A stretch of 64,000 nucleotides of DNA, taken from positions 32,001-96,000 of IMG/VR virus record IMGVR_UViG_3300025150_000006; one strand, given 5' to 3'. This stretch comes from a virus. The notes under the pieces are model-generated. The model was not told where the DNA came from. It saw only the letters and a list, made by a program, of their open reading frames with translations, and did not search any database. This document shows positions 1,493 through 19,693 of the stretch, one piece after another (the stretch's first letter is position 1; every line of letters begins with the position of its first letter). A program made the position numbers and the translations under genes.

Positions 1493-4400
1493 TCAGGGAC
1501 CTTCCTCTCCTCCAGACCCCGCAAGAACCGCTTTCTCCATCTCCGAAAACTCTTCCGGGGTCATCTGCTCGATTCTTTTCCGCTCAGCCGGATCCGTGAC
1601 TCCTTCGAGAAAGTCCCTCTTGCGTTCCGCGAACGGGCGCTCGGGCCGAAGGGTCTTGTCCTCCGCCAGCTTAGGATCCGCTCCGGCTGCAATGGCCGTC
1701 ATCACTGCAACGGGGACGTCCTGCGGGTTGGGCTTCTCGTCCATCTCGGACAGAGCATCCACGATGCCCTGAGCCTGAGCCTGCTGGATCTTCTGAGAGC
1801 CGTCCTTCATGCAAACGGCAGCCTCTTCTCCGCTATCCAGGCACTTCTTCAAGAACTCGTCACAGGCTGCATTCATGTCTTCCCGGCTGGCATCTTCCAG
1901 ATCCTTGGCCACCTGGTCGTAGACCTCGGAGCTGTTGCTTGGATCCTTCTTCTGACGAGCGATGCTGGCCGCTACCCCCTGCACGGTCGTCATCGAGTTG
2001 ACACTCATGTCGAGGAGGAGAGACCTCAGGTATTTCTTCACGTCGTCGGACAGTTCACTGTTGCCCAGTGCATCTGCAAGGGACTGCCAGGGGGCATCCT
2101 TGGACATCGTGACCAGGTCCTCATCACTGAGCTTCCCCATAGCATCCCGCACAACTTCCCGGCCTTCCGCCTGGTACATCTGCGTGGGATCCTCCAGAAA
2201 CAGCATCTTGGCACTGTTCTGCTTGACCATTTGCTTGAACAGCACCTTGAGCTTGCTGTTCAGGGGCTCTCTCAGCAACTTCCCATTGGCCCACTTCACG
2301 TCGAAAGGCTCATCGTTGAGCACAGACGCAGCGTGCAGACCGTCGATGATGGAGTTCAACTCCTTGGCCTCTGGAGAGTCCGGAGTCATACCCTTGAGCT
2401 GCTGTACGGCGTTCTCAGCGATCTTGAGCCGGTGCTCCGGGGTCACCCTCCGGTAGAGCTTCATCGCCTGCTCTGCCCGAGACGCCAGAGCGTCACTGTC
2501 CATCGGTTCCGACGACAGAGGCTTCCCGCCCAAGTGACTGGGGTCGAGCAACAGGTGCTCCTGAGCCTTGGCCTGCACAAAGGCCCGTGCCACAGCTTCA
2601 GGACTTGATGTGTCCAGGTGCAGGAAAGGGTCCTTTCCCAGCTCCTGCATCATCTGAACCGTGACATTCTCATCCGCAAGCTCCTTGCGCAGGCCACGCA
2701 TCTCCACCTGGTAGGCCGCATAGAACTCAGGTGACTCCATCATCACCATCACCTGAAGGGCCATGTCCTCTGACAGGATGCCGTCCTTCTCAAGGGACGC
2801 TGCCAACGTCTCTGTCTCATTCTTAAACCGAGCCTTGTCCACCTTGGCCTGCTCGGCCTTCTGCTTCTTCTTGGCCTCCTCCGCCGCTGGGTCCGCCTTG
2901 CCATCCGCATCGGCAGTTCCCTTGGCGTAAGCTGTGGCCTGCTCCTTGGCCTTGTCATCCTCACCGAAAGTGTGGGTGACACCCTTAGGGTTCATTGCCA
3001 CCCAGACACCGGACTCTGCCTGCCAGACATCCCCCGCCTTGTGCTTGCCCTCTTCGGCAATCAGCCTACGCACCCATCGGGAACCCACCCGAGCCTCTTG
3101 TCCCTTCCACCAAGTCCCACGGGACTTGTCCCAGCCTCCCCGTGCTGTCTCGAAACTGAACTCCCGAATCGGGTACGTCACAGACTGGGCTGCAAAGTCC
3201 ATGTCCAACGAGACACGAGCGGCATGAGCGTGGGTGGTTGTCACCCCTCCGGCTGATTGGAACCACAAGGTCCCCTTCTTCCCGGTCTGGGGGTCCTTCA
3301 CCCGCCAACCCAAACCAATGTCGAGAACACGGTACTGGTGGCCCACCAAAGTCACCACAGCGTCAGACTTCTGAGCCCGCTTCTTATAGTTCTGGCTCAG
3401 GTCCTTGTCACCGTCCGCTCCGAAGCTCTCGATGTCAGGGTCATCCTCCCGCATCCTGTGTCGGCGGAGGTCATTCCGGGGAGGCTTCTTGCTTGGGTTC
3501 TTGTGATGCAGTTCCCGGACGTCCTCATCCTCTTTCTCGGCGTGGGTCTTCGTGCCCTCGACGAACCATCGGGCGGCAAGACGACGAGAAGGCTGAGTCA
3601 ATCCCTTGCAGTCCGGGCAGAGATTAGTCGTCTCAACCCGTGGACCCAAGCACCGACACTGGCTGACCGCCCCGCACTTGGGACAGATGTTCCGGTAGTG
3701 CTGCGGCTGTGACCCCTGCTTGTTGAGCCTCTCCTTGACGGTCCCGTCCCGCAGGAAGTTGTCCTCGATGCCAGGCACGAGATACTGGCTGCGCAGAGTG
3801 CTGGCCTCGTGGCCCACCTCAGCGGCGGCCTCGTCCAACGCCTGCTTGAACTCGGCCTTGAGTTTCTTCTGCCGTTCCTTCTTGTCGGTAGGAAGGGTGC
3901 CACCCTTGGAGCGGATGGCCTTGAGCTTGGTCTGCATCTCCCGGTTGGCGTGGAGCCCCCGGATGTCCTTGGCCGTGATGTCAAAGGACTTGAGGTACTC
4001 GTTGATGCCAGAGGCATCCGTCCCCTCGAACACTGAATCCGACCCCGACTTGCCCTCCAGCGCCTTCTCCAACCCGGCCACGAGTGCAGGGTCACTGGTG
4101 CTCTTGGTCTGCTTCACCCCGGACTTGCCCACGTAGGAGATGGTAGCCGTCGAGCCCTTGACGGTGACGTGCTTGGCCTGCCAACCGGTGACGCCGTAGT
4201 GACCGTCCTTGGCTGACGCCTCATTGCCAACGCGCTCGAAGGTGTCGTTCATCAAGCCGACGATCAATGCCTTGTGCCGGGTGGCCTCGTCTCCTGACTT
4301 GAGGTCCTTCTTGACCTGAGCCTGGAGCTTATGGAGCTTGCCACGGAGCTTCTCGATACGGTCAGCCTTGTCCCGGTGCCGGTTGGCGATCTGCTGATCA

Positions 4401-7400
4401 CTGTACTCGTAGACCGTCGTGGTGCCCTTGCCGTCAGCCTTGGGCACCTCCTTCTTGGACTTGAACTTCCCGGCTGCCAGCCTCCCTGAACCGGAGAGCA
4501 CGGGGAAAACCCGGTAGATCTCCTTGATGGCCTTCTTCCACTTGCCTGGTGCCTGTTCCCGCCAGACCTTCATTGGGACAAACACGTCCCCGTGAATCAC
4601 TGAGAGTAGGTAGGCCTTCTGCCTGCTCTCAGCGTCCTCACCCCGAAGATGCTTCTGGGCAGCCTGAATCATGTCCGTCAACTGCGGGTAGAACTCAACG
4701 TCATCCAGGAGATAGTTCTCGGCAAAAGTCTTGCTCTCATCGTAGAGCATCCGCTCTTGGCTGTGCCCCGGCGTCTGGATCCGTTGGGGAGGCAACCCAC
4801 CAGGGCTCCCGAGACTGGCCATGAGAGTCTGAGCAACGTGCTCCATCTCGTGACGGACTGTGTCCTCCAGTGCCTTCAAGGACTGCTTGAACTTGACCTT
4901 GATGTTGAGCGTCTTCGTCTTGGGGTCCCAACTGCCCAGGGAAGAGCCCGTTGCCCATCCCAGCACCACACGAAGGATCTTCCACTCCACGGGCAGCTTC
5001 TTGGGAAGTGCCGAGGCTGGTGACCAACCACTCAGGTCCATTGGGAACTTACGGACCAGAGGCCGTTTGCCTGCCAAGGGGGGTACACCAGGACGGAGAT
5101 AAGGCTTCAGCTCAGCCTCATCCCGTTTCGGGTATCCCATCAGGTCGGCGGCGACTGCGGCCTGCACCCATTCCGTGACGTCCGCCACCATGGCCGGGGG
5201 TGCCGTCCACAGCCCGGCGGTTTTCTGGGACGCATACCGAAGTGCCCGCACCCCTCCGTCGGAGTTGTGCTGGACTTGAGGCTTGTCCTCCCCGGCCTTC
5301 CAAGAGTACCACTGACGTCCCACACGGAACACGTAGCCTAGCACCCCACCACCGTAGTGGTCACCAGGGTCATCCTGAATCCCCTCGAACTCGGTCTGGC
5401 CCCAGGCGAACACAGCATAGGCCTCATCAGCCTTGCTGAACCACTTCTTCATCTGAGACGTGAATCGAGCGGTCTTGAGAAGTGAGACTGGGACCACGGT
5501 CTCGGTCTCCCCAGAGGCTGCCACGGCATCTGCAAACTGCTGGGTGAACAGCAGAGGCAGGGAGTTGACAGGCACGTTCTTCTCAATGCCATCCCCACCT
5601 GTGTCGAGCACGATCTTGTGCGTCACGGCCTGGATGTACCGATGAGCAACTCGGGTTGCCGCCTCCTTGTCCTGCTTGGCCTGAGCCTCATCGTAGCGGA
5701 CCTTGAACACTTGGACCTCTTTCTTGGCCCCCTGACCGGCATCGCCCTTGGGCTTCTTCCTCACGACGATGGTGGGGTCACCTTTCTCCGTCTCCCCGAA
5801 GCCTTCGATGCGACCAGGTGAATTGCGATATTTCCCGAGAAGGACTGGATCCCCAATATTGAGTTCAAACGTCTTTCCCGTCCGGGAAAAGATGCCCGTA
5901 CTCACGGAGTAGTTCTCTGGCCCAACGGATTTGATCTGAGACCCGTTGTCCACTGGGGTGATTCCGTCGCCAAAGTTCGAGGTTGTCGATCCGGTTGTCG
6001 ATCTTGTCCCCATTGATATGGTGGACGGTCTCCGTGCGCAGGAGTCTCCTACCGAGGAATTGCTCCATGACATAGCGATGTTCGAGGATTCTCCTGCCCT
6101 CGACATTGATGCTGCGGTATCCGTCTCGGTTGAGCCATCCCTCACCCTTGAGGGCTCGCTCTGCGGCCTCCGGGTCACCCTTTCGCTTCCAGAGATAGTA
6201 ATGGCGCTCGCAGTATCCCTTTGCATAGTGGTATTCGCCACAACCCTCGACGCCACACGTTCGATCGCGTCTGCGAATCCCCTCCAAGGAGCCCGTCCGC
6301 CTGAGCATGTTGTAGTGGGTGCGGCAGTAACTCCGAACTGCGGGCTTCTTTCCGCAACCATCAAAGGTGCAAGTGAGAGATGGAGGCAAGTCGCCCACCG
6401 GCTCTGGACGTTTCCCTTTTCGGTGTTGTTGGTAGTGCATTGTGCAGAAGCCCCTGGCTTCATGAGCCCGGCAGCATCCTGCCACTGAGCACTGGCGGTC
6501 GTGATGTCGTTCTGATCTTGGTCGTCCCATGACACCAATGTATCAGCACCCTGAATCTGCAACCTGTTCTTGTACTTGCCCATCAGGACCGGGTCCCCGA
6601 CGTTCAACTCGAAAATCTTGGCCGTCCTGCCTCCCTTGAGGTCATCACGGACTCGCTGGGTCAGCCGGCGGCCATCCGAGGCCAGAGCGGGATCATCCAA
6701 CAGGTGACGCCGTGCATAGTCCTGCACCTGCCGCACCGCTGCACCCTTGAGGTTGAACTCTGCCATCAGGGTCTTGGTGTCGAGCACCTTGCCCGGCTGG
6801 TTGAGCACCCGCACATACTGGTCAGAAGCAGCGTGAGACAGCCCTACCGTCACCTCACGCACACGAGCCATCTGATGAGCGTCGAGGAACGTGAGTCGCT
6901 TCCCACTCGGGAGACCCAGATCCATCAGGTCGAAAATGAAATCGACCTTCGCCTCACGATCCACCCAGTTCCCCAGGGAGTCACGGAACACCTTGTCCTT
7001 CTGAGCGATCTCCTTGATCACGTCGAGGAGCCCGAGCTTCTGCATCTCCAACAGAGCCCTCTTGCCCGTGGGCTCCTTCAAGAACGTGTTGATGAGCATC
7101 CCACTCAGATGAGCGGCAGGGATGTTGTGGAGCTTCGCCTTGTTCTTCTCGATGCTCTGCTTGACCTCGGGGGACAGCTTGAATCCGTACTTGATCAGGA
7201 ACTTGATGGCCCTGATCATCCGGCTCGGGTCGTCTGAGAACGTCTTATCCGGGCTGGACGGGCACCGCATCATCCCTTCTTGGAGGTCCTTCAGACCACA
7301 CCCAGAAAGGTCAAGAATCTCAGCCTTTTCCGGGCCTTCAGCCAGATCGTGCAGACGCCAGAGAAGGCAGTTGAACGTAAATTCACGACGACACACATCC

Positions 7401-7840
7401 TGCTCAATGGTCGCGGGTGTGACCTTGTCCGGGGTGTATCCCCCCTGGCCGTAACTCTCCGTCCGAGCATTCGCAATCTCGATGTCTTCACCACGCAGGT
7501 TGGCTTCCCCAAGCATCCAGTCACCGACGATGTGCATCAGAGCCACACCGTACTGGTTGGTCGTGATGTTCGTCTTCGCGGGGATCGCTCGGGCCACTTC
7601 CTTAGCGAACCACTCGGAGTCCTTGCCAGTAGCCACAGAGTCGATGACGACGTCGATGTCCTTCACAGGATACTTTTGCCCTGTAGGGTCCAGCACAAAG
7701 TTCCTTACTGCCCCTCCGACGACATAGACGTGCTTGCTCACACCCAGTCGCTTCGACAGGTCCGAGAGGAACTTCATCAGGGCCAGGCTGGCCTGATCGT
7801 CCATTGCAATGCGGGTTTGTTGAGCCACAGGCCACTCCAA
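1493..7840 (-). CDS. Multi-module polyprotein: CCA-type tRNA nucleotidyltransferase (~6630-7800), SH3/KOW-like module, HExxH zincin-like module, type IB topoisomerase (~3720-4470), Zn finger, helical C-terminal domain
   Basis: VYVVGGAVRN, KDIDVV, ARTESY, RREFTFN, DDPSRMIRA (class II nucleotidyltransferase); TVRHEMEH; RVGNE, GKSG, TAKDIR, VGH, RSQY (Topo IB R-K-R-H-Y pentad); CPKC..CRC..CPDC. True start may be GTG 7828 after GGAG. Confidence 0.85.
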   Translation of the reverse strand: MEWPVAQQTRIAMDDQASLALMKFLSDLSKRLGVSKHVYVVGGAVRNFVLDPTGQKYPVKDIDVVIDSVATGKDSEWFAKEVARAIPAKTNITTNQYGVALMHIVGDWMLGEANLRGEDIEIANARTESYGQGGYTPDKVTPATIEQDVCRREFTFNCLLWRLHDLAEGPEKAEILDLSGCGLKDLQEGMMRCPSSPDKTFSDDPSRMIRAIKFLIKYGFKLSPEVKQSIEKNKAKLHNIPAAHLSGMLINTFLKEPTGKRALLEMQKLGLLDVIKEIAQKDKVFRDSLGNWVDREAKVDFIFDLMDLGLPSGKRLTFLDAHQMARVREVTVGLSHAASDQYVRVLNQPGKVLDTKTLMAEFNLKGAAVRQVQDYARRHLLDDPALASDGRRLTQRVRDDLKGGRTAKIFELNVGDPVLMGKYKNRLQIQGADTLVSWDDQDQNDITTASAQWQDAAGLMKPGASAQCTTNNTEKGNVQSRWATCLHLSLAPLMVAERSPQFGVTAAPTTTCSGGRAPWRGFADAIERVASRVVANTTMQRDTASAITISGSERVTRRPQSEPSRVRDGSTETDTAASMSRAGESSNIAMSWSNSSVGDSCARRPSTISMGTRSTTGSTTSNFGDGITPVDNGSQIKSVGPENYSVSTGIFSRTGKTFELNIGDPVLLGKYRNSPGRIEGFGETEKGDPTIVVRKKPKGDAGQGAKKEVQVFKVRYDEAQAKQDKEAATRVAHRYIQAVTHKIVLDTGGDGIEKNVPVNSLPLLFTQQFADAVAASGETETVVPVSLLKTARFTSQMKKWFSKADEAYAVFAWGQTEFEGIQDDPGDHYGGGVLGYVFRVGRQWYSWKAGEDKPQVQHNSDGGVRALRYASQKTAGLWTAPPAMVADVTEWVQAAVAADLMGYPKRDEAELKPYLRPGVPPLAGKRPLVRKFPMDLSGWSPASALPKKLPVEWKILRVVLGWATGSSLGSWDPKTKTLNIKVKFKQSLKALEDTVRHEMEHVAQTLMASLGSPGGLPPQRIQTPGHSQERMLYDESKTFAENYLLDDVEFYPQLTDMIQAAQKHLRGEDAESRQKAYLLSVIHGDVFVPMKVWREQAPGKWKKAIKEIYRVFPVLSGSGRLAAGKFKSKKEVPKADGKGTTTVYEYSDQQIANRHRDKADRIEKLRGKLHKLQAQVKKDLKSGDEATRHKALIVGLMNDTFERVGNEASAKDGHYGVTGWQAKHVTVKGSTATISYVGKSGVKQTKSTSDPALVAGLEKALEGKSGSDSVFEGTDASGINEYLKSFDITAKDIRGLHANREMQTKLKAIRSKGGTLPTDKKERQKKLKAEFKQALDEAAAEVGHEASTLRSQYLVPGIEDNFLRDGTVKERLNKQGSQPQHYRNICPKCGAVSQCRCLGPRVETTNLCPDCKGLTQPSRRLAARWFVEGTKTHAEKEDEDVRELHHKNPSKKPPRNDLRRHRMREDDPDIESFGADGDKDLSQNYKKRAQKSDAVVTLVGHQYRVLDIGLGWRVKDPQTGKKGTLWFQSAGGVTTTHAHAARVSLDMDFAAQSVTYPIREFSFETARGGWDKSRGTWWKGQEARVGSRWVRRLIAEEGKHKAGDVWQAESGVWVAMNPKGVTHTFGEDDKAKEQATAYAKGTADADGKADPAAEEAKKKQKAEQAKVDKARFKNETETLAASLEKDGILSEDMALQVMVMMESPEFYAAYQVEMRGLRKELADENVTVQMMQELGKDPFLHLDTSSPEAVARAFVQAKAQEHLLLDPSHLGGKPLSSEPMDSDALASRAEQAMKLYRRVTPEHRLKIAENAVQQLKGMTPDSPEAKELNSIIDGLHAASVLNDEPFDVKWANGKLLREPLNSKLKVLFKQMVKQNSAKMLFLEDPTQMYQAEGREVVRDAMGKLSDEDLVTMSKDAPWQSLADALGNSELSDDVKKYLRSLLLDMSVNSMTTVQGVAASIARQKKDPSNSSEVYDQVAKDLEDASREDMNAACDEFLKKCLDSGEEAAVCMKDGSQKIQQAQAQGIVDALSEMDEKPNPQDVPVAVMTAIAAGADPKLAEDKTLRPERPFAERKRDFLEGVTDPAERKRIEQMTPEEFSEMEKAVLAGSGGEEGP
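5822..6565 (-). mobile_element. 744-bp in-frame HNH insertion carrying a recoded duplicate of 21 host codons
   Basis: RTAKIFELNVGDPVLMGKYKN (6566-6628) repeated as RTGKTFELNIGDPVLLGKYRN (5822-5884) exactly 744 nt away, with AT-richer codons in the second copy. Confidence 0.8.
5865..6530 (-). CDS. HNH homing endonuclease with three N-terminal CxxxxC...CxxHY Zn-finger repeats, nested out of frame in the polyprotein gene
   Basis: EHRYVMEQFLGR...VHHINGDKIDNRIDNLELW; repeats CSVAGC..CTMHY, CTFDGC..CRTHY, CGVEGC..CERHY. Confidence 0.9.
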   Translation of the reverse strand: MGRPRSERHHDRQCSVAGCCRAHEARGFCTMHYQQHRKGKRPEPVGDLPPSLTCTFDGCGKKPAVRSYCRTHYNMLRRTGSLEGIRRRDRTCGVEGCGEYHYAKGYCERHYYLWKRKGDPEAAERALKGEGWLNRDGYRSINVEGRRILEHRYVMEQFLGRRLLRTETVHHINGDKIDNRIDNLELWRRNHPSGQRVSDQIRWARELLREYGHLFPDGKDV

Positions 7841-7856
7841 TGAGGTCCCCTTCTGT

Positions 7857-8699
7857 TCAAGGGGACCTCATAGGCGAACAACCGCCTAGAACCTGAAAAG
7901 CACCCTCATCCTCCGAAACATCTTGCAGGCGGGATTCCGCCACACCCGTCCAGTGAGGATCACGGTCCACACCCCGGAAAGACATCCCCTCAAGAATTGC
8001 AGCTTCACCTGTAGTGCCAGACCCACAAAAAGGGTCTACGACCACCCCTCCAGGAGGGCACACCACCCGAACCAGTTGCCGCATCCAACCCACCGTTTTC
8101 TCGGCGGGATGGTCGTGCTTGTGTTTTGAGACTGGGAACCCCTCAAACAGGTGAGACAACCGAGGTTCCCCCACCTGCATGTACCCCACCCCCCATTGTT
8201 CGTGGTTAGCCTTCGAGGATTGCTGTGTCCCCGGCTTACGAGCCAGCACCCACAGTTCTGTTTCCTGTACAAGCTGGGTAGACAATCCACCATCGACCAA
8301 AGGGGATTTGGGCCTACGGCGATGCAGACGACGGATCAGGATGTCAATGGTAGGGAGACCTGCACGTTCCAGGCCCTCCATCAGCCAATGGAGGCTGGAC
8401 TGGAAACCCCAAAACACCCCATAGCCACCCGGCTTCAACACCCGGCTACATTGTTCAAGTACAGGATAAACCTGTTTCTCAAAACCAGGACGCATCGCCA
8501 AATGAGTCCGATGATGGGTTTGAAAATTGGCTCGTGTCCGGTTAGTGGGGGAATCCCAACCGAGGTAACGTGAATCCCCGCCCCCGAAAGGAACCATCAT
8601 ATTCCGACCAGAGGGCGGATCGGTAACAATGGCATCAGCACTGTTGTCTGGCCACGAACCCATCACATCAGCCGCATCCCCCAGACTCACATCATACAT
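7857..8699 (-). CDS. Beta-class N4-C/N6-A DNA methyltransferase
   Basis: IVTDPPS (motif IV-like), HPAEK, VVVDPFCGSGTT (motif I); start overlaps the upstream stop (TGATG). Confidence 0.8.
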   Translation of the reverse strand: MYDVSLGDAADVMGSWPDNSADAIVTDPPSGRNMMVPFGGGDSRYLGWDSPTNRTRANFQTHHRTHLAMRPGFEKQVYPVLEQCSRVLKPGGYGVFWGFQSSLHWLMEGLERAGLPTIDILIRRLHRRRPKSPLVDGGLSTQLVQETELWVLARKPGTQQSSKANHEQWGVGYMQVGEPRLSHLFEGFPVSKHKHDHPAEKTVGWMRQLVRVVCPPGGVVVDPFCGSGTTGEAAILEGMSFRGVDRDPHWTGVAESRLQDVSEDEGAFQVLGGCSPMRSP

Positions 8700-10393
8700 C
8701 AGAACCGACCCTCGCCCTCAACCTTGGGCTTCGTGTACTTGAGGCCCAGGTACTCAGCAATCTTCGCCGTGAAGTCCGTGTTCTCCGCGAGACCATCACC
8801 AACCCTGGTGTAGAGGCCTCGAAGGATCTCGTTGAACGTCGCGTCCTGGAACGTACCGAAGTCTCGTGCCAGCTTCTCGCGAATCGTGATGGGGTCGAGG
8901 TTGAGATGTTCGAGGATGGTGTCGATGTCGAGGGACCCCTTCTGGTAGAGGTTCATCAGAGCATCGAAGGTCTCGGTGTTGTCACGGAAGGAGAGCCTGG
9001 TGAACGAGAGGTGCGGGACGATGACCTGAAGGACACCATCCTCATCCTCCTCAACGAACCCCATCCGCAGACACATCGGCCGGAAGAACTGGTCCTCGAC
9101 CAGTTCTTGCAGAGTCTCCCGCATCAGCATAAACCTGGTGTTGATGACCTCCAGGTTGATGCGGTCTCCCGAGTAGCTGGACTCACCCGACAACAGACTC
9201 TCGGTCACGCCCAGGCCGGCATACATATGCCGGTCGGTCATGTCGAAGACCCAACTCCAGTCAGGCAGCCGCTGGTCCGCACCCATCTCCTCCCAGGTGA
9301 CCTGGAAGTTGGTGATGATCGAGAAGTCCGGGTCTTGCAGAGCAAGGTCAACCTGCTCTCGCAAGTCCTCCGTCTGCTCAGCGTTCATGTCCTCGGCGTA
9401 GATCAACCGGTAGGGCGTCATGTGCCGGGAAGCGATCGAAGTCAGTGATTGTCGGACCTTGTCGCGGAACACCAGTGTTCGGAGGCACCGTTCGAGGATG
9501 CTCTTGCCCCGTGGCTCGTACTGGGACTTCTTCCGGGCCATGTTGTAGTAGAAGGAACCGGCCTCGGGGTCCGTGTTGAGAGGGACGTTCATCCCCTCTG
9601 AGATAGCGGCCACCACATCTTGTGGCATCGAGTTCACGATGCGGATGGCGTTGGGGTCACCGGACTGGGCTCGATTGAAGATAGCCTTCGTCTTCGAGTC
9701 CGGGATCAGCTCGACCAGCTTCTCCTCGGTGAAGGGGAAGCTCTCGATGTGAATCTGCTCCGGGGGCAGGGTCCGCACCGCAGACCAACCCTTGTAGTTC
9801 TTCTTGAGCCAAGCGACGGCCCGCTCCTTGGCGTCCTCCCGAACGACCTTCCTCTCAACGACCTCGCCCTCCTTGGTGATCTCCCGAACGACCTCGTACT
9901 CGACCGTGTCGGGCATGTCGTCGGAGGTGTCCTCACAGAAGATATGGGCCTCACCAAGCAGGTTCCACTCGTGACTGATCTCCATCAGCCGGTGAAGGAG
10001 ACCCACCCGCTTCGCCCAGTTCTCACAGAACCGGAGAGCCGCAGCCGCCAACTTCTCGTTCTTCGCTGCGGGTTTACGAAGCCGTACCTTGGACAAGGGA
10101 AGCTCGTCGAGCAGGTCGATGGCCTGCCCCACGAAGGGGTCGTGGTCGTAGAAGAAGCGGAAATAGTTGCGCTTCTCGTCATCGGACTGGGGCAGCTCCA
10201 GGAAGTCCGTGGACAGCTCGGGGGAGTAGAAGTTGCCTCCGGCACCCATGGAGGTGTTGCCACCTCCGCCTGCCAGGGAAGCCGCCCGCATCGAAGAAGT
10301 GAGGATCTTGGTGGGCTTTCCCACGGTCACACCCGCACGCTCCGCAATCTTGCGGACCACAATGGTGCTGTCAGGGTCATTCGTCCTAGCCAT
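8699..10393 (-). CDS. Probable portal protein
   Basis: 564 aa, close downstream of terminase; portal-like segments (FYDHDPFVGQAID, LLGEAHIF, PRGKSILER, GLGVTESLLSGESSYS). Confidence 0.6.
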   Translation of the reverse strand: MARTNDPDSTIVVRKIAERAGVTVGKPTKILTSSMRAASLAGGGGNTSMGAGGNFYSPELSTDFLELPQSDDEKRNYFRFFYDHDPFVGQAIDLLDELPLSKVRLRKPAAKNEKLAAAALRFCENWAKRVGLLHRLMEISHEWNLLGEAHIFCEDTSDDMPDTVEYEVVREITKEGEVVERKVVREDAKERAVAWLKKNYKGWSAVRTLPPEQIHIESFPFTEEKLVELIPDSKTKAIFNRAQSGDPNAIRIVNSMPQDVVAAISEGMNVPLNTDPEAGSFYYNMARKKSQYEPRGKSILERCLRTLVFRDKVRQSLTSIASRHMTPYRLIYAEDMNAEQTEDLREQVDLALQDPDFSIITNFQVTWEEMGADQRLPDWSWVFDMTDRHMYAGLGVTESLLSGESSYSGDRINLEVINTRFMLMRETLQELVEDQFFRPMCLRMGFVEEDEDGVLQVIVPHLSFTRLSFRDNTETFDALMNLYQKGSLDIDTILEHLNLDPITIREKLARDFGTFQDATFNEILRGLYTRVGDGLAENTDFTAKIAEYLGLKYTKPKVEGEGRF

Positions 10394-10940
10394 TCACCAC
10401 CCCACCCACTAGACGCCTGAAGATGGCAAGGACGTAGCCGTCGTTGCCCTCCTCGCCTTGCTGGCGAGCAATCTCCAAGGCTCGTTGCCACAACACGCCC
10501 TGAGTCGGCAGAGCTTCAGAATCCAGCTCGGGCTCTTCCTCCACAGATTCTGGCTCTTCCTCGGGGACTACGTCCTTCCCCTCCAAGAATCCAAGCACCC
10601 GGCGAAGACGGTCCTGATACTCTTGCCCACGACGAGAGGGCCTGGAAACTCCAGCGGAACGTTCTCTCCCCTCTAGCCAAGAACACAGGGCTCGGGCCTC
10701 CTGCTTGATGTCCACCTCCTCCGAGGTGCCTTCCAGGTGCCCTATGGCCCCAATCAGGCGCTCCGCCTTGGCCAGCCGAGCCAACTTATCCCGATAGGGC
10801 GCATCCTCAGAAGCCTGGGACCGGGATGCCTGAGCACACACTGCCAACGCTGCACGGACGGCCTGGTGGGCACGAGCCAGGTGCGTGTGCAGCTCACGGT
10901 CAGCAGATGACCGGGAAAGTGTGGCGCGAAGACGACCCAT
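10386..10940 (-). CDS. Hypothetical protein
   Basis: ORF coupled to neighbours in the packaging operon. Confidence 0.6.
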   Translation of the reverse strand: MGRLRATLSRSSADRELHTHLARAHQAVRAALAVCAQASRSQASEDAPYRDKLARLAKAERLIGAIGHLEGTSEEVDIKQEARALCSWLEGRERSAGVSRPSRRGQEYQDRLRRVLGFLEGKDVVPEEEPESVEEEPELDSEALPTQGVLWQRALEIARQQGEEGNDGYVLAIFRRLVGGVVNG

Positions 10941-11195
10941 CTAGTCCCATTTCTCCTTCTTGGTCAGGTAGCCCTGCTTGAAAGCGACCTTGAGCACGGT
11001 CTTGAGCAGGTTGATGTCTTCCGCAGACCCGTCGAAAACCGACTTCCACGAACCACCAGCCTGAGAGAATACCCGTGAAACACGATCGAACTCACTGGGA
11101 ACCGGTGTGATTTTGCCGTTGAGGACCAGACTGGTCATCTTGAGCAAGAACCGATGGTCCGCACGAAGGGGCCACTGTGGGGTCAAACTTGCCAT
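10941..11195 (-). CDS. Small hypothetical protein
   Basis: 84-aa ORF starting 3 nt after the terL stop, typical codon usage. Confidence 0.6.
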   Translation of the reverse strand: MASLTPQWPLRADHRFLLKMTSLVLNGKITPVPSEFDRVSRVFSQAGGSWKSVFDGSAEDINLLKTVLKVAFKQGYLTKKEKWD

Positions 11196-11198
11196 GAA

Positions 11199-14100
11199 TC
11201 ATCGGCCTCCCCGACCACGAGACGTATTCCGACTGAGGGCCGAGCGCTGCCGATCTGGGCTAGAACCACCCAGCCGAGTCCGAGCTGATGCCTTGCGCAT
11301 CATCTTCGCCAGGTCCGTCGGGGTGGGGATGTTCCCACGGTGCCCCGGTCGGGTGTCTGTACCTGCAATATACTTTCGCTTACCGATGTGCTGGGTAGCC
11401 TCCCAGACCATTCGGACGAGGGCGTCTGAGTAGTCATCGTACTTGCCAGGTGCATTGGGGGCCTCGACCGTGATGATGTACTTCGAGTGCATCTCCGCCT
11501 GAAGTTCCATCATCTCCGCGATGTACTCTGCGTGCCACTCCCCACCCTCGGTCTCGACCTCGGGAGCGTCGAACAACAGCACCTTGCCCTCGTACATGAG
11601 GGTTTTGAAGTTGGCGAAGACCTGACTGGTGAGCTGCTTCGTGAAGAACACCGACTCACACTGGATCAAACCCTTGTTGTGCAGAGCCGTCTCGAACGGG
11701 ATACCGGCCCACTGATCAAACAAGCCCTTCTCGATATAGAACTTCCTCGACAACCCGTGGATCCACGCCGTGATGTCGTCGAACGACAAACGGGTCAGGT
11801 TCTTGTAGTTTCCTTCGCCCGCTCGGATGCGCTCAATGTGGTCGAGCACGATGTTGCTCTGGTAGTCGATATGGCCAATGGCAACCGCGCAGTAGTCACC
11901 ATCCACCAGACCCGCCGAGATGTCGATGCCCATGAAGTGGGGGGCTCGGGCCGGAGCCTTGAGTGCAGGGCTGTGACTGTCATCCACACAACGCAACAGA
12001 GCATTTGGCTCCAGCCAGCCCTTGGTACGGTTGGTGAAATCAGCCCCGAACTCGGTGAAGAAGCTGTCCTGGTCCGTCTCATACTCTTCTGCGAGGAACG
12101 AAGCCTCCACCGTTGGGTTGACTTCCCAGGTCGGTGCCTGGATACAGAGCATGTTCTGGGAAGCCAGGCCACCCATGAACCCCTGACGGTACTTCCGATA
12201 GAAGAACCCTTGCTTGCCCAGGGGGCTGGAGATGGACAGGATGCGGCCTTCGACCTTGCCTACTGCTCGACGACGGTTGTTCGGGTCCTTGGGGGAGAAA
12301 GCGGCCAGCGAGGGCTTGACAGCTCGGTAGATCTTGAGGGCGTCCGACTGCCCTGCATCGTTGAAGTGGGCAAGCTCGTCGAGGATGATGACGATGTTAC
12401 CAGCACCACGGAGACCCTTGGCGACACAGCTCTTGAAACTGACCTTGATGGTGGCCTTGGCCGTGGGGTCGTCGGAGTACCGACCGAATCGCTGAATGTC
12501 CTCTGGCGACTGGAACTTCGCGTAGGACATCGTGTTGTTGGCGGTGTAGGGCTTGTAGAAAGCACAGTTACCTGTGACAATGTTCCCCTCCAGGGTGAAC
12601 GTCCCATGCCCCTCCACCGTGGCACAAAACACCTCCTCCACCCGATCAGTCGCCTCAACCGACCGGACAGTCCAATACTTGTGGCGCTGCGCCTTCCCAC
12701 CCCCTGCGGAGAGGAAGTTCTCCCGGTGCTGCAGAATCACGAAAAAGGACTCATCCAGATGGCTCCGCTGGAGTGCAAGAGAAAACATCGTATGAGGCTG
12801 GCCCGTGAGGTTGGACACCCTATCTTCGCGGCGGATGGTGAACGTCCCAATCCCCAACACGGCGCACACGTCTCGGACAAACAGGAGGTTGGCCTCAACC
12901 GCACTGCTAATAATGACCTGACCACCCTTGGAGCAGGACCCGTCTGCGGCGAAGTAGCCCATCAGCCACCCCAACAGGTAGCTGTGGTTCTCCTCGATGG
13001 AGGGCAGTTCCCGGAAGAAGTTTGGCAAGGCTCCGAAGCGGGTGGCGTTGATGCCAGGCTGGTCCGTCGAGGGGCAAAGAGCAAAGTACGGCTGAAGGTG
13101 GGAGTCCTTCTCCCCCACCAAGTTCACCGACGTGGCGTGACGCTGACCCTTTGAGGTGCTGCCGTCTCCAAAGGTAAACCCATGGGCGACACCGAAGGGT
13201 GAACCCGTCACCTTGTTCTTGTAGCTCCGGCCGTACACCTGCTGAAGCCGGTGCTTGCCGGGCCGCAATTCCGTGGTCTTGAACTCCCTGTAGCCCTTGC
13301 CTCGGTGTGGCTTCCGCTGGTCCAACGTGAGCCAACGGTGATCCCCCGTGCAGTGAATGACCTTCTCGACTCCTTGCCGGGAAAGCACCAACCTGTAGAG
13401 GCGCTGCCTGCCGAAGGACCGCACCGGTGCTGCTACCCAGGCCCCCTTCCCCGTCAGTACCGTGGGGGTCGTACCCGCCAACTCACCAATGGGTTTGATG
13501 CCATCAGCGGTAATCACCTCGGTGTCCCGAGCGAAACAGTTCGAGAAGTGACCGCTGGCCTCGTTGTACAACAGCCCGGCCTGATCCTTGTCCGTTGCGA
13601 CCGAGATGAGCTGGATCACGTTCGTCTTGGGGATGCCGTAATAGAGCTGCGGGTTGTCCTTCAAGATGAGCTTGTAGACCTCGTAGGCCATCACGCAGGC
13701 ACAGATGAACGTATTGTGGCTAGTCATTCCATTGGCGACGAATGACTCCCCGTCGGGCACGTTCAGGTCAAACACCGGATTGACCCCTTCCTTGATGTCC
13801 TTCACGGGATCGAAGAAGTAGTCCAGATCCAACAGGTGCTCAAAGTGAGCGATGACCTCAGGGTCGGCCCCGAGCCCCCGAGCCACTGGCAGCACTTGCT
13901 CCAACCGGGGGTAGGTCATCTCGTCCAGGGCTGCCGGCTTGATCGTGTTGCCCAGTACCTCCCGTAGGGCCGACCGACTCCATGCTTTTTTCTGACCCGG
14001 ACGGGGATGCACAACGGGCACAGACTCTAAGAGACGCCGTGCCCAATCCCTCTGATGGGGGATTGACTCGGCATCCCCCCCTTCCTTCCCAGCGGCCTCC

Positions 14101-15545
14101 AAGGACTGGAGCAGGGGGTCCATTTTCTTCCTAGAATCAAACCCCACCCGCTCTGCGAAGCCCCTCCTGTGCCGAAGTCCACGGATGGTCAGAATCCAAT
14201 AGACATTGCCCTTGATGGTTTTGGGCTTGATCCGGCTAACGATGCCCAGATTGAGCAACAGCGTCTGAACTTCCCGAGCAAGACGCCCACTGGCAGTGCT
14301 GTAGGATACGATCTTGCCTCCAGACTCGACCCCGCCATCCGTCTCAAACAACCCACGCAAAAATGCCTGTACCACGGGACGAGGCGACTGAAGGATGGAC
14401 CAGGGCACCATCTTGGCATCCCGGTCCGTTCCCAACCTGAACCCCAAGTCGTGAAGGAACGCCCGCATCCCCACGCTGCCAAACTTGATGGCCCCGGTGT
14501 TTTCCGTGCGCTTGTCCATCACCACGGAGTAACCGCCCAACAAGCCGGTGTAGAGGGCTTTCAGGGTGTCCCACGTCTCGTCATGCTCGACGGTGACCTC
14601 GACTCGGCCCTTGTAGTTCCACAGACCATCCCCCACAAGGTAGCCCAGAAAGCGTCCCCAGTCCTCCGTCAACTTGTCTGGGAACTTCAACTCCCGGTAG
14701 CCCGCGGCATTGTGGAAAGGAGTGCAGTCAACGTACTCCGACGCCCACAGGTCAGTGTTCCGGTGGATGCACACCACGTCCCCGACTGCCAAATCCGCCA
14801 GATAACGCCAAGCCACCACACCTTGCTCAGTGAGCACCTTGATCCGGTGGTTGTCCGTCCCCCCTAGATGATAGCCACACCGGGTCGTCAGAGTTCGAGT
14901 TGCCTTCACCCCACCGTTGTAGAAATAGGCCGACCGGGACTTTTGAGCCCCCTCCTGAGCCACCCCCACTTCAAGGACTTGAACTTCAGGACCATCTGGG
15001 TCGCCCATTTCCTCGATGCGTCGGATGCCCCCATCCGTCAACACGAGACTGTCCCCGAGAATGCACTTGCCTGAACGACGACCGATGGAAAGCACCAGCT
15101 CTCGGCGCTCCTCCCCCGCGATGACCTCACTGATGTTGCTGCGACCCTCATTGAACAGGAACCGGAGATACTCAGCCTCCGTCATGTACCGAGGGTTCTC
15201 TCGCCGCCAGTCTGTGATCTTGACCCGGAACTTGTAGTACCCGGTCTCATCCTCCATCCCAGCCCCTTCAGCGACCACCTCTGCCTCGGAACCACCTTCA
15301 TCAGGGAGGAAAGCCTGCTCCTTGTAGGCCGGATGATCTGTGGGGATGGGCTTGTTGAGGTCGAACCCATAGGGGTTGTCGTCGAGAGGGATGCCGTAAT
15401 GGGCCTTCAAAATCACCCGCTGTACCGGGTACAACGGAATGTTGAGTCCCCAGGTGGACTCGACAAACGTGATGATGTCAACCGCCCGATAACCAGACTG
15501 CTGTTGCCTGCCGGCTTCGAGGGCGATGTCCGCCAGGCGACTCAT
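11199..15545 (-). CDS. terL: Terminase large subunit with two inteins (mature about 673 aa)
   Basis: Walker A GRRSGK|T, Walker B IIILDE, ISSP coupling motif, nuclease MGID and DDYSDA. Confidence 0.88.
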   Translation of the reverse strand: MSRLADIALEAGRQQQSGYRAVDIITFVESTWGLNIPLYPVQRVILKAHYGIPLDDNPYGFDLNKPIPTDHPAYKEQAFLPDEGGSEAEVVAEGAGMEDETGYYKFRVKITDWRRENPRYMTEAEYLRFLFNEGRSNISEVIAGEERRELVLSIGRRSGKCILGDSLVLTDGGIRRIEEMGDPDGPEVQVLEVGVAQEGAQKSRSAYFYNGGVKATRTLTTRCGYHLGGTDNHRIKVLTEQGVVAWRYLADLAVGDVVCIHRNTDLWASEYVDCTPFHNAAGYRELKFPDKLTEDWGRFLGYLVGDGLWNYKGRVEVTVEHDETWDTLKALYTGLLGGYSVVMDKRTENTGAIKFGSVGMRAFLHDLGFRLGTDRDAKMVPWSILQSPRPVVQAFLRGLFETDGGVESGGKIVSYSTASGRLAREVQTLLLNLGIVSRIKPKTIKGNVYWILTIRGLRHRRGFAERVGFDSRKKMDPLLQSLEAAGKEGGDAESIPHQRDWARRLLESVPVVHPRPGQKKAWSRSALREVLGNTIKPAALDEMTYPRLEQVLPVARGLGADPEVIAHFEHLLDLDYFFDPVKDIKEGVNPVFDLNVPDGESFVANGMTSHNTFICACVMAYEVYKLILKDNPQLYYGIPKTNVIQLISVATDKDQAGLLYNEASGHFSNCFARDTEVITADGIKPIGELAGTTPTVLTGKGAWVAAPVRSFGRQRLYRLVLSRQGVEKVIHCTGDHRWLTLDQRKPHRGKGYREFKTTELRPGKHRLQQVYGRSYKNKVTGSPFGVAHGFTFGDGSTSKGQRHATSVNLVGEKDSHLQPYFALCPSTDQPGINATRFGALPNFFRELPSIEENHSYLLGWLMGYFAADGSCSKGGQVIISSAVEANLLFVRDVCAVLGIGTFTIRREDRVSNLTGQPHTMFSLALQRSHLDESFFVILQHRENFLSAGGGKAQRHKYWTVRSVEATDRVEEVFCATVEGHGTFTLEGNIVTGNCAFYKPYTANNTMSYAKFQSPEDIQRFGRYSDDPTAKATIKVSFKSCVAKGLRGAGNIVIILDELAHFNDAGQSDALKIYRAVKPSLAAFSPKDPNNRRRAVGKVEGRILSISSPLGKQGFFYRKYRQGFMGGLASQNMLCIQAPTWEVNPTVEASFLAEEYETDQDSFFTEFGADFTNRTKGWLEPNALLRCVDDSHSPALKAPARAPHFMGIDISAGLVDGDYCAVAIGHIDYQSNIVLDHIERIRAGEGNYKNLTRLSFDDITAWIHGLSRKFYIEKGLFDQWAGIPFETALHNKGLIQCESVFFTKQLTSQVFANFKTLMYEGKVLLFDAPEVETEGGEWHAEYIAEMMELQAEMHSKYIITVEAPNAPGKYDDYSDALVRMVWEATQHIGKRKYIAGTDTRPGHRGNIPTPTDLAKMMRKASARTRLGGSSPDRQRSALSRNTSRGRGGR
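12567..13538 (-). mobile_element. Intein 2 of TerL (324 aa, LAGLIDADG; Cys1 plus W-C-T triplet; ends GN)
   Basis: FSN|CFARDT...TGDHRW...GYFAADG...VFCATV...IVTGN|CAF. Confidence 0.88.
13713..15065 (-). mobile_element. Intein 1 of TerL (451 aa, class 1, LAGLIDADG) in Walker A
   Basis: GK|CILGDS...GYLVGDG...FLRGLFETDG...FVANGMTSHN|T. Confidence 0.92.
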
Positions 15546-15558
15546 TAGGTGGACCCTC

Positions 15559-16239
15559 CTAGATCGACTTCTTCATCCGCGTCTTCGCTTCGTCCTTCCA
15601 GTCATCATCCACCATGTTGGAGAACCGGCTGAAGACCGTCTCGATCTGCTCGGGTCGGAGGTGGGCGAAGTTCATCGCCTCACGGAAAGTGTCCATGATC
15701 TGTCGGAACAGCACCGCAAATGCTGGGGACTCCATGTCGATATTCCGCGTGGTGAGCTGGTCCATACGCTTGAGCCACGTCTCTGCCGTGGCTCGAAGGG
15801 CCTGCACACGCTTCGAGGACAATCCTGATGTGTCCTTTCCCTCGCGAGCAGCCTCCAGGCGCTCGAACTTGAGGCTGGCAGCTTCCTCGCCGAGGCCCAT
15901 GATGATGGCCTGGAGCAAGTCCGCCGATTCAGGATTACGCCGCATCTGCTCAAGGATGTCGTCGGCGTTCATCACCGCATCCTTGCGCTTGAGGACCTCC
16001 GCCACAGTGGCGTTGGCAGGACCAACATCCACGACGTTCTTACGGCCTGGCTTCCCCTTCATAACGATGGGGTCGCCGAGCTTGTTCGTCTGAACTACGT
16101 CCGTGTCGGCAAGATCCGACACAGCCTTGTACTTCTGCTCACCCTTGGCCGTCAGCACCCGCACACGAGTTGCACTTGGGGGAATCTTGGCCAGGAGGTC
16201 AGCTCGGAGCTGCTTATCCTGGGCACTCTTACGGGGCAT
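15559..16239 (-). CDS. Hypothetical protein, possibly terminase small subunit
   Basis: 226-aa helical basic protein directly upstream of terL; positional inference only. Confidence 0.4.
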   Translation of the reverse strand: MPRKSAQDKQLRADLLAKIPPSATRVRVLTAKGEQKYKAVSDLADTDVVQTNKLGDPIVMKGKPGRKNVVDVGPANATVAEVLKRKDAVMNADDILEQMRRNPESADLLQAIIMGLGEEAASLKFERLEAAREGKDTSGLSSKRVQALRATAETWLKRMDQLTTRNIDMESPAFAVLFRQIMDTFREAMNFAHLRPEQIETVFSRFSNMVDDDWKDEAKTRMKKSI

Positions 16240-16250
16240 GAGCGGGCCTC

Positions 16251-16793
16251 CTATGTGAACTCAGGCGGATAGGGTGACGGGTCGCCCTGGTCCATGAACC
16301 CTGGCTTGACCGTCGCCGCCAACACGAAAGCACTCGCGGCACCCCACTCTACCACCTCCATGCGATGCTCATCACCGTGGGCTACAGTCGTAGAGATCGT
16401 CACAGTGTCGATGCCATCCGAGACGGCCGTGAACCCAGGCAGAGCCAAGATAGCAGCCGCGAGGTTGGCGGCCAGAGCGATGTCGTTGGCCCCCACAGCG
16501 AAATCCACTCCGGGACGAAGCTCGAACGCGCCTACCCGGATGAGATGCTCGCCAGGCACACAGTTGGCCTGCACAACAGCAACATCAGCCGTGGCGGCTA
16601 CGACCCCTCCTGGAGCCCTCACCCGAGCAATCAGACCGTGACCCAAGCCACGCTTGACCCAGGAGAATGTCTCCGTCTGCCGAATAGGGGCAGGCTGCCC
16701 GAGGGCCTTGACCGTCTGGCTCGGATCCGTCCCAAACGGATGCACAGGGACATGAATCGTGAACGCCGGGCCACTGCGGAACTTGTCTGCCAT
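16251..16793 (-). CDS. Putative structural protein
   Basis: Ala/Val/Thr-rich beta protein; AANLAAAI..LPGFTA..DTVTI pattern resembles virion domains. Confidence 0.45.
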   Translation of the reverse strand: MADKFRSGPAFTIHVPVHPFGTDPSQTVKALGQPAPIRQTETFSWVKRGLGHGLIARVRAPGGVVAATADVAVVQANCVPGEHLIRVGAFELRPGVDFAVGANDIALAANLAAAILALPGFTAVSDGIDTVTISTTVAHGDEHRMEVVEWGAASAFVLAATVKPGFMDQGDPSPYPPEFT

Positions 16794-16802
16794 CGGATCC
16801 CC

Positions 16803-19064: not shown

Positions 19065-19648
19065 GAAGGGCCTCCCTCGTCCATTTCAGCTTCTTCACCC
19101 TCGGCCCAATCCTCGGGGTCTTCCTTGATCTCATCCACGTCATCCATGATCTGCTGGACCTCTGAACGGGCGCGGGGGTCTCCACCGGAGTCGTTCACGT
19201 CGGGATGCCAGTGGATGGCCTTGATCTCATCATCGAGTGTATCTGCAATGGAGGACAGAGCCTCATCACAGTTCGAGAGCTGCTTACGGATGTCCTTCAC
19301 GGGCATCACATAGCCCTTGCCCCCGAGATTCCCATCAGGAGAGATCCTCTGACTCTTGATCTTCGTGAACGTCGTGCGGGCGGTCTGGATGTGACCAAGC
19401 GCCATCAGCACACTGCGGAGGGTCCGAGCAAGGGGCTCAAGATTCTTGCCGTCGAACTTGTAGTCGGGGTCGATGTTCCGCTCGGAAGAACCAGGTGGGT
19501 TCCAGCCCCACTCGTGGTGGTCCCCGCCCCGATCCTTAATGAACCGGACCTCGCCAGCCGTCTTCGACCGTGTCGGCCGCAAGGCCGCCCGCACGAAACG
19601 TGCAGTGACTCGCTCAACGGCTTGTTTCATCTGGCGGTTATCGGACAC
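19061..19648 (-). CDS. Hypothetical late protein
   Basis: GGAGGAG RBS; N-terminal KQAVERVTARF..SKTA; CCTAT motif upstream. Confidence 0.7.
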   Translation of the reverse strand: MSDNRQMKQAVERVTARFVRAALRPTRSKTAGEVRFIKDRGGDHHEWGWNPPGSSERNIDPDYKFDGKNLEPLARTLRSVLMALGHIQTARTTFTKIKSQRISPDGNLGGKGYVMPVKDIRKQLSNCDEALSSIADTLDDEIKAIHWHPDVNDSGGDPRARSEVQQIMDDVDEIKEDPEDWAEGEEAEMDEGGPS

Positions 19649-19693
19649 GAGGGGTTCTCCTCCGGCTTCTACTGGTTCGCTGGTATAGGCTCA

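Follow-up and report, generated by a model that had tools for sequence, protein, structure and literature searches.

How can a homing endonuclease gene lie inside a much longer gene whose own reading frame stays open across it, with no sign of an intron or an intein? The question is raised by a 64,000-nucleotide stretch of IMG/VR viral record IMGVR_UViG_3300025150_000006 (the window), which covers bases 32001-96000 of a 105-kb contig; all positions below are window positions. CheckV estimates the contig to be ~24% complete, and its source is therefore a huge phage. Within a gene for a 2115-residue multi-module protein, a cassette carrying an HNH endonuclease gene has entered a small beta-barrel module, and an earlier note, made from the letters alone, had taken the endonuclease to be neutralized without splicing of either kind. 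We favor an answer along the same lines, at a probability of roughly 0.72: the cassette is a hidden homing-endonuclease element of the ShiLan type, known from mycobacteriophage methylases, here housed in a beta-barrel module of a huge phage's multi-enzyme protein and read through without splicing. The features on which this reading depends are as follows.

1493..7840 (-), the host gene, encoding a multi-module (polyvalent-type) protein of 2115 amino acids, downstream of the portal and DNA methylase genes
6566..6628 (-), copy 1, 21 resident codons that once opened the beta-barrel module and are now an orphan fragment, from the R-T-A border to the left junction of the cassette
5822..6565 (-), the inserted cassette, 744 nucleotides or 248 host-frame codons, made up of a 35-nucleotide leader, the HNH gene and a second 21-codon copy
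5885..6565 (-), the host-frame spacer, 227 codons, stop-free and Ser/Thr-rich, made up of the leader and the +1 frame of the HNH gene
5865..6530 (-), the HNH_3 homing endonuclease gene (PF13392), 221 amino acids, in the -1 frame relative to the host
5822..5884 (-), copy 2, cassette-borne and differently coded, contiguous with the rest of the module
5681..5884 (-), the small SH3-like beta-barrel module, intact, made up of copy 2 and the downstream part

Is the cassette an insertion? Related loci (numbered here with an L) answer directly. In L002 and L085, the G-K-Y-x-N turn of the module runs straight into S-P-G-R, and L003 shows an equivalent continuity; with many metagenome loci, these bring the loci with an uninterrupted module to more than 30. 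Because relatives read uninterrupted through the site, the 744 nucleotides at 5822-6565 are an insertion of exactly 248 codons, that is, 227 spacer codons plus the 21 codons of copy 2. Related phages thus hold the empty allele that the earlier note had envisaged; a degenerate DNA pattern for the exact G-D-P-V-L-M-G-K-Y-K-N allele gave 0 matches in viral contigs. The GC content at third codon positions (GC3) along the host frame drops only over the insert and recovers directly after copy 2.

The gene inside the cassette is complete, as had been claimed, and lies on the same strand as the 2115-residue open reading frame (ORF) but in another frame. Its product has intact Zn-ribbon repeats and an intact HNH core, matches PHROG HNH families with E values down to 4e-23, and is putatively an active homing endonuclease. 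Because the HNH gene starts 2 nucleotides downstream of a host codon start, its +1 frame is that of the host, and it ends within copy 2, at a stop codon at 5865-5867. As the earlier note also had it, the host frame passes through all 248 inserted codons with 0 stops. Serine and threonine make up 26% of the spacer versus 11% of the rest of the host protein, and a phmmer search of the 227 residues against 1.84 billion representative proteins returned only the window's own protein, so the spacer is without conservation as a protein and led to no additional embedded elements. Its description as Ser/Thr-rich and non-protein-like therefore stands, with the amendment that the richness is largely intrinsic to the frame, since the +1 frames of homologous HNH genes average 20% serine plus threonine. 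Near the HNH 3' end, just before copy 2, there is also a weak terminator-like hairpin with a T-rich tail (5895-5908, minus strand); the count of such hairpins is within chance expectation, and the insert has no significant terminator.

Where do the two copies of the 21 codons come from? They share 16/21 residues, 39/63 nucleotides and 5/21 third codon positions, and their local alignment score stands at z = 14 against shuffles. Copy 1 is resident-like, with a GC3 of 0.95 and 13-16 of 21 third positions in common with L002, L085, L092 and L093. Copy 2 is foreign-coded: its GC3 is 0.48, it has 4-6 of 21 third positions in common with the same loci, and its mean relative codon frequency is 0.28, compared with 0.50 +/- 0.07 in host windows, a value as low as which is reached by no 21-codon window of the host ORF. 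Two claims are confirmed, namely, that the insert ends with a differently coded, AT-richer copy of the preceding 21 host codons and that the duplication begins at an R-T-A module-border motif (the support for this motif as a border mark is given below). A third claim, that the recoded copy would be immune to the element's own nuclease, fares less well. Identical codons between the copies number 4/16, against 8.8 expected under host usage (P = 0.004), and this is not lower than uniform synonymous choice predicts (P = 0.24); the foreign coding holds, whereas recoding is inseparable from plain foreign origin.

What would the duplication do for the host protein? An AlphaFold model of the 68-residue module, built from a 6-sequence alignment, has a predicted local distance difference test score of 75 and strands at residues 13-16, 22-31, 37-43 and 54-58, and it maps the insertion point to the turn between strands 1 and 2. 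Because the insertion point lies in this turn, the model suggests that 227 residues would interrupt the barrel if there were no duplication, whereas with it copy 2 and the downstream part would form a contiguous module. In the host frame, copy 2 is indeed contiguous with the rest of the module, in line with the earlier claim that the downstream copy rebuilds a complete module from the border motif. A Foldseek search of the model against PDB gave only weak matches (E about 0.03-0.1) to PWWP, Tudor, KOW and CAP-Gly barrels, and the ~65-residue module (G-D-P-x-L-x-G-K-Y-K-N ... K-G-D-P-T-V) has no Pfam family. It is found in dozens of large viral and metagenome contigs (L085-L132), inside giant ORFs, at N termini and as stand-alone genes of 73-129 codons.

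Does the same arrangement occur elsewhere? In L007, a 312-kb contig, an HNH gene whose product is 45% identical to the window's lies in a 481-residue ORF, with a homologue of the same module immediately 3' of the gene; the insert measures 594 nucleotides, or 198 codons, and the upstream duplicate covers 23 residues (15/23 amino acids and 44/69 nucleotides identical; z = 13). A module-alignment search gave six viral and 42 metagenome loci, and tblastn of HNH proteins against these found three more occupied sites (L102, L126 and L101). The HNH gene of L102, a 143-kb contig, is embedded in a host frame that is again its +1 frame and stays open for at least 1413 codons, and its stop lies inside the R-I-A-K border, which divides after the A. 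The HNH proteins of L007 and L102 are 45-50% identical to the window's, and both sites have empty alleles of their own (L090/L122 for that of L007 and L091/L107 for that of L102), with L091 and L107 carrying L102's upstream context uninterrupted into the module. In L102, the frame has remained open although the resident 5' piece (copy 1) is decayed; this remnant is not significant by local alignment and is recognizable solely from the upstream context common to L091 and L107. L126 has a free-standing HNH gene, with a product 49% identical to the window's; it precedes a stand-alone gene of 129 codons for the module, the offset differs and the host frame is closed. Just upstream of the module in L101 (2005-2442, plus strand) there is a decayed HNH gene, with its first catalytic His replaced and its C terminus truncated.

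Two HNH sub-lineages thus occupy this one site in three phage lineages, and together with the empty alleles and the decayed copy in L101 this is indirect evidence that the enzyme may cut the empty allele and the cassette be copied into it. A maximum-likelihood tree pairs the window HNH with L126 (93/76) and L007 with L102 (99/97), and it gives no resolution on the sisterhood of the two pairs or on a single clade for the four module-associated HNH genes. In a flank-duplication screen of 80 HNH loci, the signal was strong in the window (z = 14) and L007 (z = 13) and weak in L080 (z = 3.1), a small methylase contig. Several side observations belong to these loci. Farther downstream on the L080 contig (1627-2046, plus strand), there is a second hidden HNH gene, of 139 amino acids, for which the host is again the +1 frame and the methylase frame is open; a flank duplication is not obvious there. 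A single multi-module ORF of L102 (953-5191, plus strand) carries both the hidden out-of-frame HNH gene and a conventional LAGLIDADG intein, the latter at the nucleotidyltransferase module, so that two different selfish strategies share one gene; the beta-barrel precedes the nucleotidyltransferase there, unlike in the window. In L101, the host ORF after the decayed HNH gene appears to have an intein-like insert with a LAGLIDADG-type motif.

Could the open frame be a matter of chance? Genome-wide, +1 frames have 0.031 stops per codon; 0/16052 +1-frame windows of 227 codons are stop-free, and the longest run is 212. When the HNH protein is recoded with genome codon usage, the probability of 0 stops in +1 is 0.015. 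Other loci offer a broader comparison. Among 80 viral loci with HNH homologues, only L007 and L080 have another frame on the same strand that stays open along the entire HNH gene, and it is the +1 frame in both. Counts of +1 stops in 78 homologous HNH ORFs are 0 only in the embedded L007 and L080 genes, with a median of ~8, and each of the 24 ORFs whose GC content is 0.55 or more has at least one. Five embedded HNH genes were examined (the window's, those of L007 and L102 and two in L080), and none has a stop in +1, while the free-standing L126 gene has 8. The stop-codon depletion that the earlier note had raised for homologues is therefore present, and it is restricted to embedded genes: these are all stop-free, free-standing ones are not, and no homologous insert with host-frame stops turned up among the embedded copies examined. 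The +1 frame can be opened by synonymous change, unlike the +2 frame, which was never opened in 20,000 synonymous shuffles of the window HNH, was unopenable in 5/6 HNH genes tested (0 of 5,000-20,000) and was opened almost never in L102 (P0 = 0.0004). The L102 HNH gene has no NTG or NTA codon for its 21 Leu/Val residues. Because three embedded alleles have empty alleles, the free-standing sister is closed and one copy has decayed, selection rather than luck most likely keeps the host frame open.

How might such an arrangement arise and persist? We posit that a free-standing-type HNH gene homed into the coding sequence of the small beta-barrel module. The usual place of such a gene would be just 5' of the module, and its target would lie ~60 nucleotides inside the module, at the G-K-Y-K-N codons. 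If donor and recipient had no common upstream homology, the left junction would form illegitimately, and the recipient's own first codons would stay behind as the orphan copy 1, probably marking the break point at the G-K-Y-K-N codons; in the window and in L102, the N codon is the last before the left junction, and in L007 the junction comes about three codons earlier. There would then be no RNA or protein splicing. Ribosomes in the host frame (HNH +1) would pass 227 stop-free spacer codons, then the complete module and then ~1440 residues, so that the host gene is probably translated straight through the insert and the spacer may be tolerated as a linker. The HNH protein would be made separately, through internal initiation in its own frame. 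In a long ORF, only cassettes with a length that is a multiple of three and a stop-free +1 frame would survive, which would account for the constant frame offset and the avoidance of NTG and NTA.

Several points weigh against this proposal. The source contig is a metagenome assembly. The open-frame statistic is weak at a single locus, because the codon usage of the HNH gene already avoids NTG and NTA (CTG provides 1/16 of the Leu codons in the window HNH, versus 33% in the genome): in 13% of trials, shuffling the gene's own synonymous codons leaves +1 without a stop, so that the argument depends on comparing several loci. There is no clear Shine-Dalgarno sequence upstream of the HNH ATG, a 227-residue unstructured insert with an orphan strand could impair the host protein, and splicing is excluded only through the absence of known signatures.

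Could the message, then, be spliced after all? Group I introns of phage genes are a frequent home of HNH genes, splicing from any point of one repeat to the equivalent point of the other would leave the message in frame, and covariance models can miss divergent introns; a cryptic self-splicing intron (group I-like or of an unknown class), spliced between equivalent points of the two copies, is nonetheless very improbable in our view. With Rfam (4227 models), positions 5400-7000 match no intron even at E<=10, and L007, L102, L126, L101 and L080 match none at E<=1; the insert has only 78 nucleotides (35 + 43) outside the HNH ORF, too little for a ribozyme core. Such an intron would require neither an exon duplication nor an open host frame, but the frame is stop-free in all embedded copies, unlike in free-standing relatives. 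If the gene is instead expressed in two parts, the upstream nucleotidyltransferase part would carry a useless tail, the downstream part would come from an internal restart and the open frame would be incidental. There are phage genes that homing endonucleases have split into working, separately translated pieces (as in Aeh1 nrdA), and the spacer does have in-frame GTG and ATG codons. However, the upstream part is not ended by a stop, no Shine-Dalgarno-led in-frame start was found in the vicinity of copy 2, and an incidental open frame would leave the recurrence in L007, L102, L080 and ShiLan unexplained; we consider this version highly improbable. The same low standing falls to a recent, mildly deleterious accident, in which the gene is damaged, not yet lost and open by luck. 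The own-codon shuffle (P = 0.13) would allow it, and copy 1 is undecayed in the window, which suggests a recent event; against it, the insert is a multiple of three, the same design recurs with HNH genes only 45-50% identical, copy 1 of L102 has decayed with the frame still open, which points to long persistence, and 0 free-standing homologues have an open +1 frame. On splicing and on a separate downstream start, the earlier note's view of the insert is upheld: neither a group I intron core, nor an intein signature, nor a Shine-Dalgarno-led start near copy 2 came to light. Other candidates were rejected outright. An intein fails on Pfam, which finds no domain and no Hint/intein domain in the host-frame insert, on the identity of the insert as the +1 frame of the HNH gene and on the lack of spacer relatives (the N-S junction at the end of copy 2 exists in empty alleles too, and related phages carry ordinary inteins). 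A ribosomal hop has no signals and would have to span 744 nucleotides, far beyond any hop known to us; a frameshift fusion is precluded by the closure of the HNH frame 4 codons upstream of its ATG; and DNA-level excision would lack a recombinase and would have to act on repeats with just 62% identity.

Is the spacer perhaps translated and then cut out? This was the earlier note's preference: proteolytic maturation at [KR]-x-A borders (R-T-A before copy 1 and R-T-G before copy 2) would discard the orphan and the spacer and free the rebuilt module. We regard it as tentative and on balance unlikely, though the least unlikely of the alternatives. In its favor, the motif ([KR]-x-A, or more broadly [KR]-x-[AG]) lies within 6 residues of 7/10 BLAST-defined module borders in the window protein (P = 1.5e-4), [KR]-x-A-K usually precedes the module in multi-module contexts, and two extra modules of L085 are each bracketed by R-T-A. 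The border motif is also kept at copy 2 in the window, L102 (R-I-A) and L007 (R-V-A), and the duplication extends exactly to the border in the window and L007. These patterns support [KR]-x-A as a module border mark. The host protein has an HExxH stretch, and embedded zincin peptidases have been proposed to process polyvalent phage proteins (PMC5512222). On the other hand, the motif may simply be the module's conserved N terminus, the third position of the copy 2 border is G rather than A, and PHROGs, Pfam and PDB sequence searches found no protease family in the HExxH region or in the ORF adjoining the host gene. Nor does the design need proteolysis, as ShiLan-type elements persist in methylases, which are not polyproteins. 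Two further observations concern the borders. The L085 modules end in R-T-A, as if cassettes were exchanged at that motif, and a second motif, R-[VL]-A-x-[RK]-[YFW], occurs near module starts in the window protein (residues 730 and 1420), L002, L003 and L085 and also begins the duplicated stretch in L007.

Straight read-through of a hidden homing-endonuclease element remains our preferred reading, and here it joins a published principle. Methylases of mycobacteriophages were described as carrying a mobile insertion, the "ShiLan domain" (Gosselin et al. 2023, PMC9957025), and this was later reported to be an out-of-frame HNH gene in the third frame, with no stops in the methylase frame and no intron or intein signature; it was proposed to stay in the protein (Arsenault et al. 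2025, PMC11855218). The same study describes an 11-residue similarity between the insert start and the downstream flank, free-standing relatives of the ShiLan HNH upstream of the methylase in other phages and a further hidden HNH in the Pacc40 gp60 insertion of a mycobacteriophage methylase (PMC11855218). The earlier note's "third way besides introns and inteins" is therefore not a novelty, as it had been proposed for these insertions (PMC11855218); what is new here is its occurrence in a huge phage and in this host gene, at a [KR]-x-A module border. ShiLan gp65, examined directly, has 0 host-frame stops, its host frame is the HNH +1 frame, and the region of its K-P motif is duplicated; in ShiLan and L080 alike, the flank duplication at the methylase K-P motif is more alike as protein than as DNA. 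The window HNH is 50% identical to the hidden ShiLan HNH over a 62-residue core (E = 4e-16), and the first L080 HNH is 52% identical to the hidden HNH under ShiLan gp65 and relatives.

The window element thus resembles ShiLan and Pacc40 in its same-strand HNH_3 gene in a frame that makes the host frame its +1, its stop-free host frame, the lack of an intron or intein signature and its patchy presence at a conserved site (filled in the window, L007 and L102, decayed in L101 and empty in more than 30 loci). It also shares with them a short flank duplication, here 16/21 amino acids versus 39/63 nucleotides, and free-standing relatives upstream of the target gene. Unlike ShiLan, whose host is a non-essential methylase of a temperate actinophage, it sits in a 2115-residue multi-enzyme protein of an uncultured huge phage, where its target is the small beta-barrel adjoining a [KR]-x-A border. 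At 21 codons, the duplication exceeds that of ShiLan and rebuilds the whole module from the border, ~1440 downstream residues would depend on read-through, and proteolytic trimming is conceivable.

Other endonucleases have met the same difficulty in other ways. The free-standing homing endonuclease gene mobE splits nrdA in Aeh1, and mobA travels with the gene 60 hop of T4. Both resemble the window element as intron-less, intein-less endonuclease genes in an essential coding region, with the host rescued by an unusual expression trick; they rely, however, on stop and restart with subunit reassembly or on a 50-nucleotide ribosome hop, whereas the window element has neither a stop nor a hop signal. 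The selfish homing logic of inteins and group I introns is the same, as is their preference for conserved coding sites, but the window element has no Hint domain and no ribozyme core, and nothing is removed as far as the sequence tells. Closer in one respect are the fungal mitochondrial mORFs, which carry a replacement gene end in Allomyces atp6 and in Glomus atp6, atp9, cox2 and nad3, with copies near-identical as protein and 64-81% identical as DNA (PMC3630166). There too, the endonuclease travels with a foreign host-coding copy beside its site, and the resident copy is left as a duplicate (PMC3630166). The window element is their mirror image: the fungal elements carry the C terminus, and translation ends before or in the mORF, whereas the piece carried here is the N terminus of an internal module, and ribosomes must therefore pass the entire endonuclease gene in a different frame.

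What kind of gene has been entered? Three further features of the host protein were recognized.

residues 38-280 of the host protein, nucleotidyltransferase head, class II, poly(A) polymerase/CCA-type (Pfam and PHROGs)
residues 1153-1348 of the host protein, topoisomerase IB catalytic core (Pfam and PHROGs)
residue 997 of the host protein (4838-4852, minus strand), HExxH stretch

The small beta-barrel is a further module, after the nucleotidyltransferase head in the window protein. DNA methylase, portal and terminase genes lie upstream of the host ORF, which is a very long virion-module gene and probably an important one. Full-length relatives of its product occur in large viral contigs, namely, L002 (2151 amino acids) and L003 (1798 amino acids; 536-kb contig); the N-terminal part of the L002 homologue is 76% identical to the window protein, and modules are shuffled between the window protein and its relatives. 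The blastn search of the host region against 50,697 phage records gave no match, and no relatives were confirmed in viral contigs with the protein's downstream 400 residues as the query. Several unrelated enzyme modules in one polypeptide, the virion-gene region, the HExxH stretch and the shuffling of modules between relatives all recall polyvalent proteins (Iyer et al. 2017, PMC5512222). Such proteins commonly include a zincin-like peptidase among their effector domains; here nucleotidyltransferase and topoisomerase IB domains and the HExxH stretch are present, but searches gave no peptidase family match, so that the protein may or may not be of the polyvalent kind and its membership in the MPTase family is at most putative. 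As far as Iyer et al. 2017 (PMC5512222) was searched, it describes neither the nucleotidyltransferase-topoisomerase IB combination nor [KR]-x-A borders. In L085 (1-6207, plus strand), the two additional modules lie between the nucleotidyltransferase and the beta-barrel, and one of them has paired H-x-T motifs in a 2H-phosphoesterase-like sequence. Elsewhere in the window (11199-15545, minus strand), a 1448-residue ORF has helicase-like and large-terminase matches and is unusually long for a terminase.

What does the locus mean for homing endonucleases and their phage hosts? It extends a recently proposed way for such an enzyme to inhabit a gene, in which a stop-free alternative frame is read through in place of RNA or protein splicing, a hidden-HNH design until now known from non-essential mycobacteriophage methylases. 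It also brings natural controls (three embedded alleles with their own empty alleles, a free-standing sister with a closed +1 frame and a decayed copy) and so adds comparative support for the view that selection acts on the open frame. Annotators who meet long "junk" inserts in phage ORFs should look at the other frames too. The locus further gives a target-site model (the G-K-Y-K-N codons) and, in [KR]-x-A, a candidate processing motif for multi-module phage proteins. Might this be a general lifestyle? We can imagine that one HNH clade shuttles between free-standing (L126) and embedded states in huge-phage multi-module genes, with its +1 frame kept stop-free, a replacement module start carried along and the spacer cut at [KR]-x-A in polyproteins, though we hold this wider picture to be somewhat more doubtful even than proteolytic trimming of the window protein itself. 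If it is true, [KR]-x-A trimming would make the insertion phenotypically silent and would be a proteolytic analogue of splicing.

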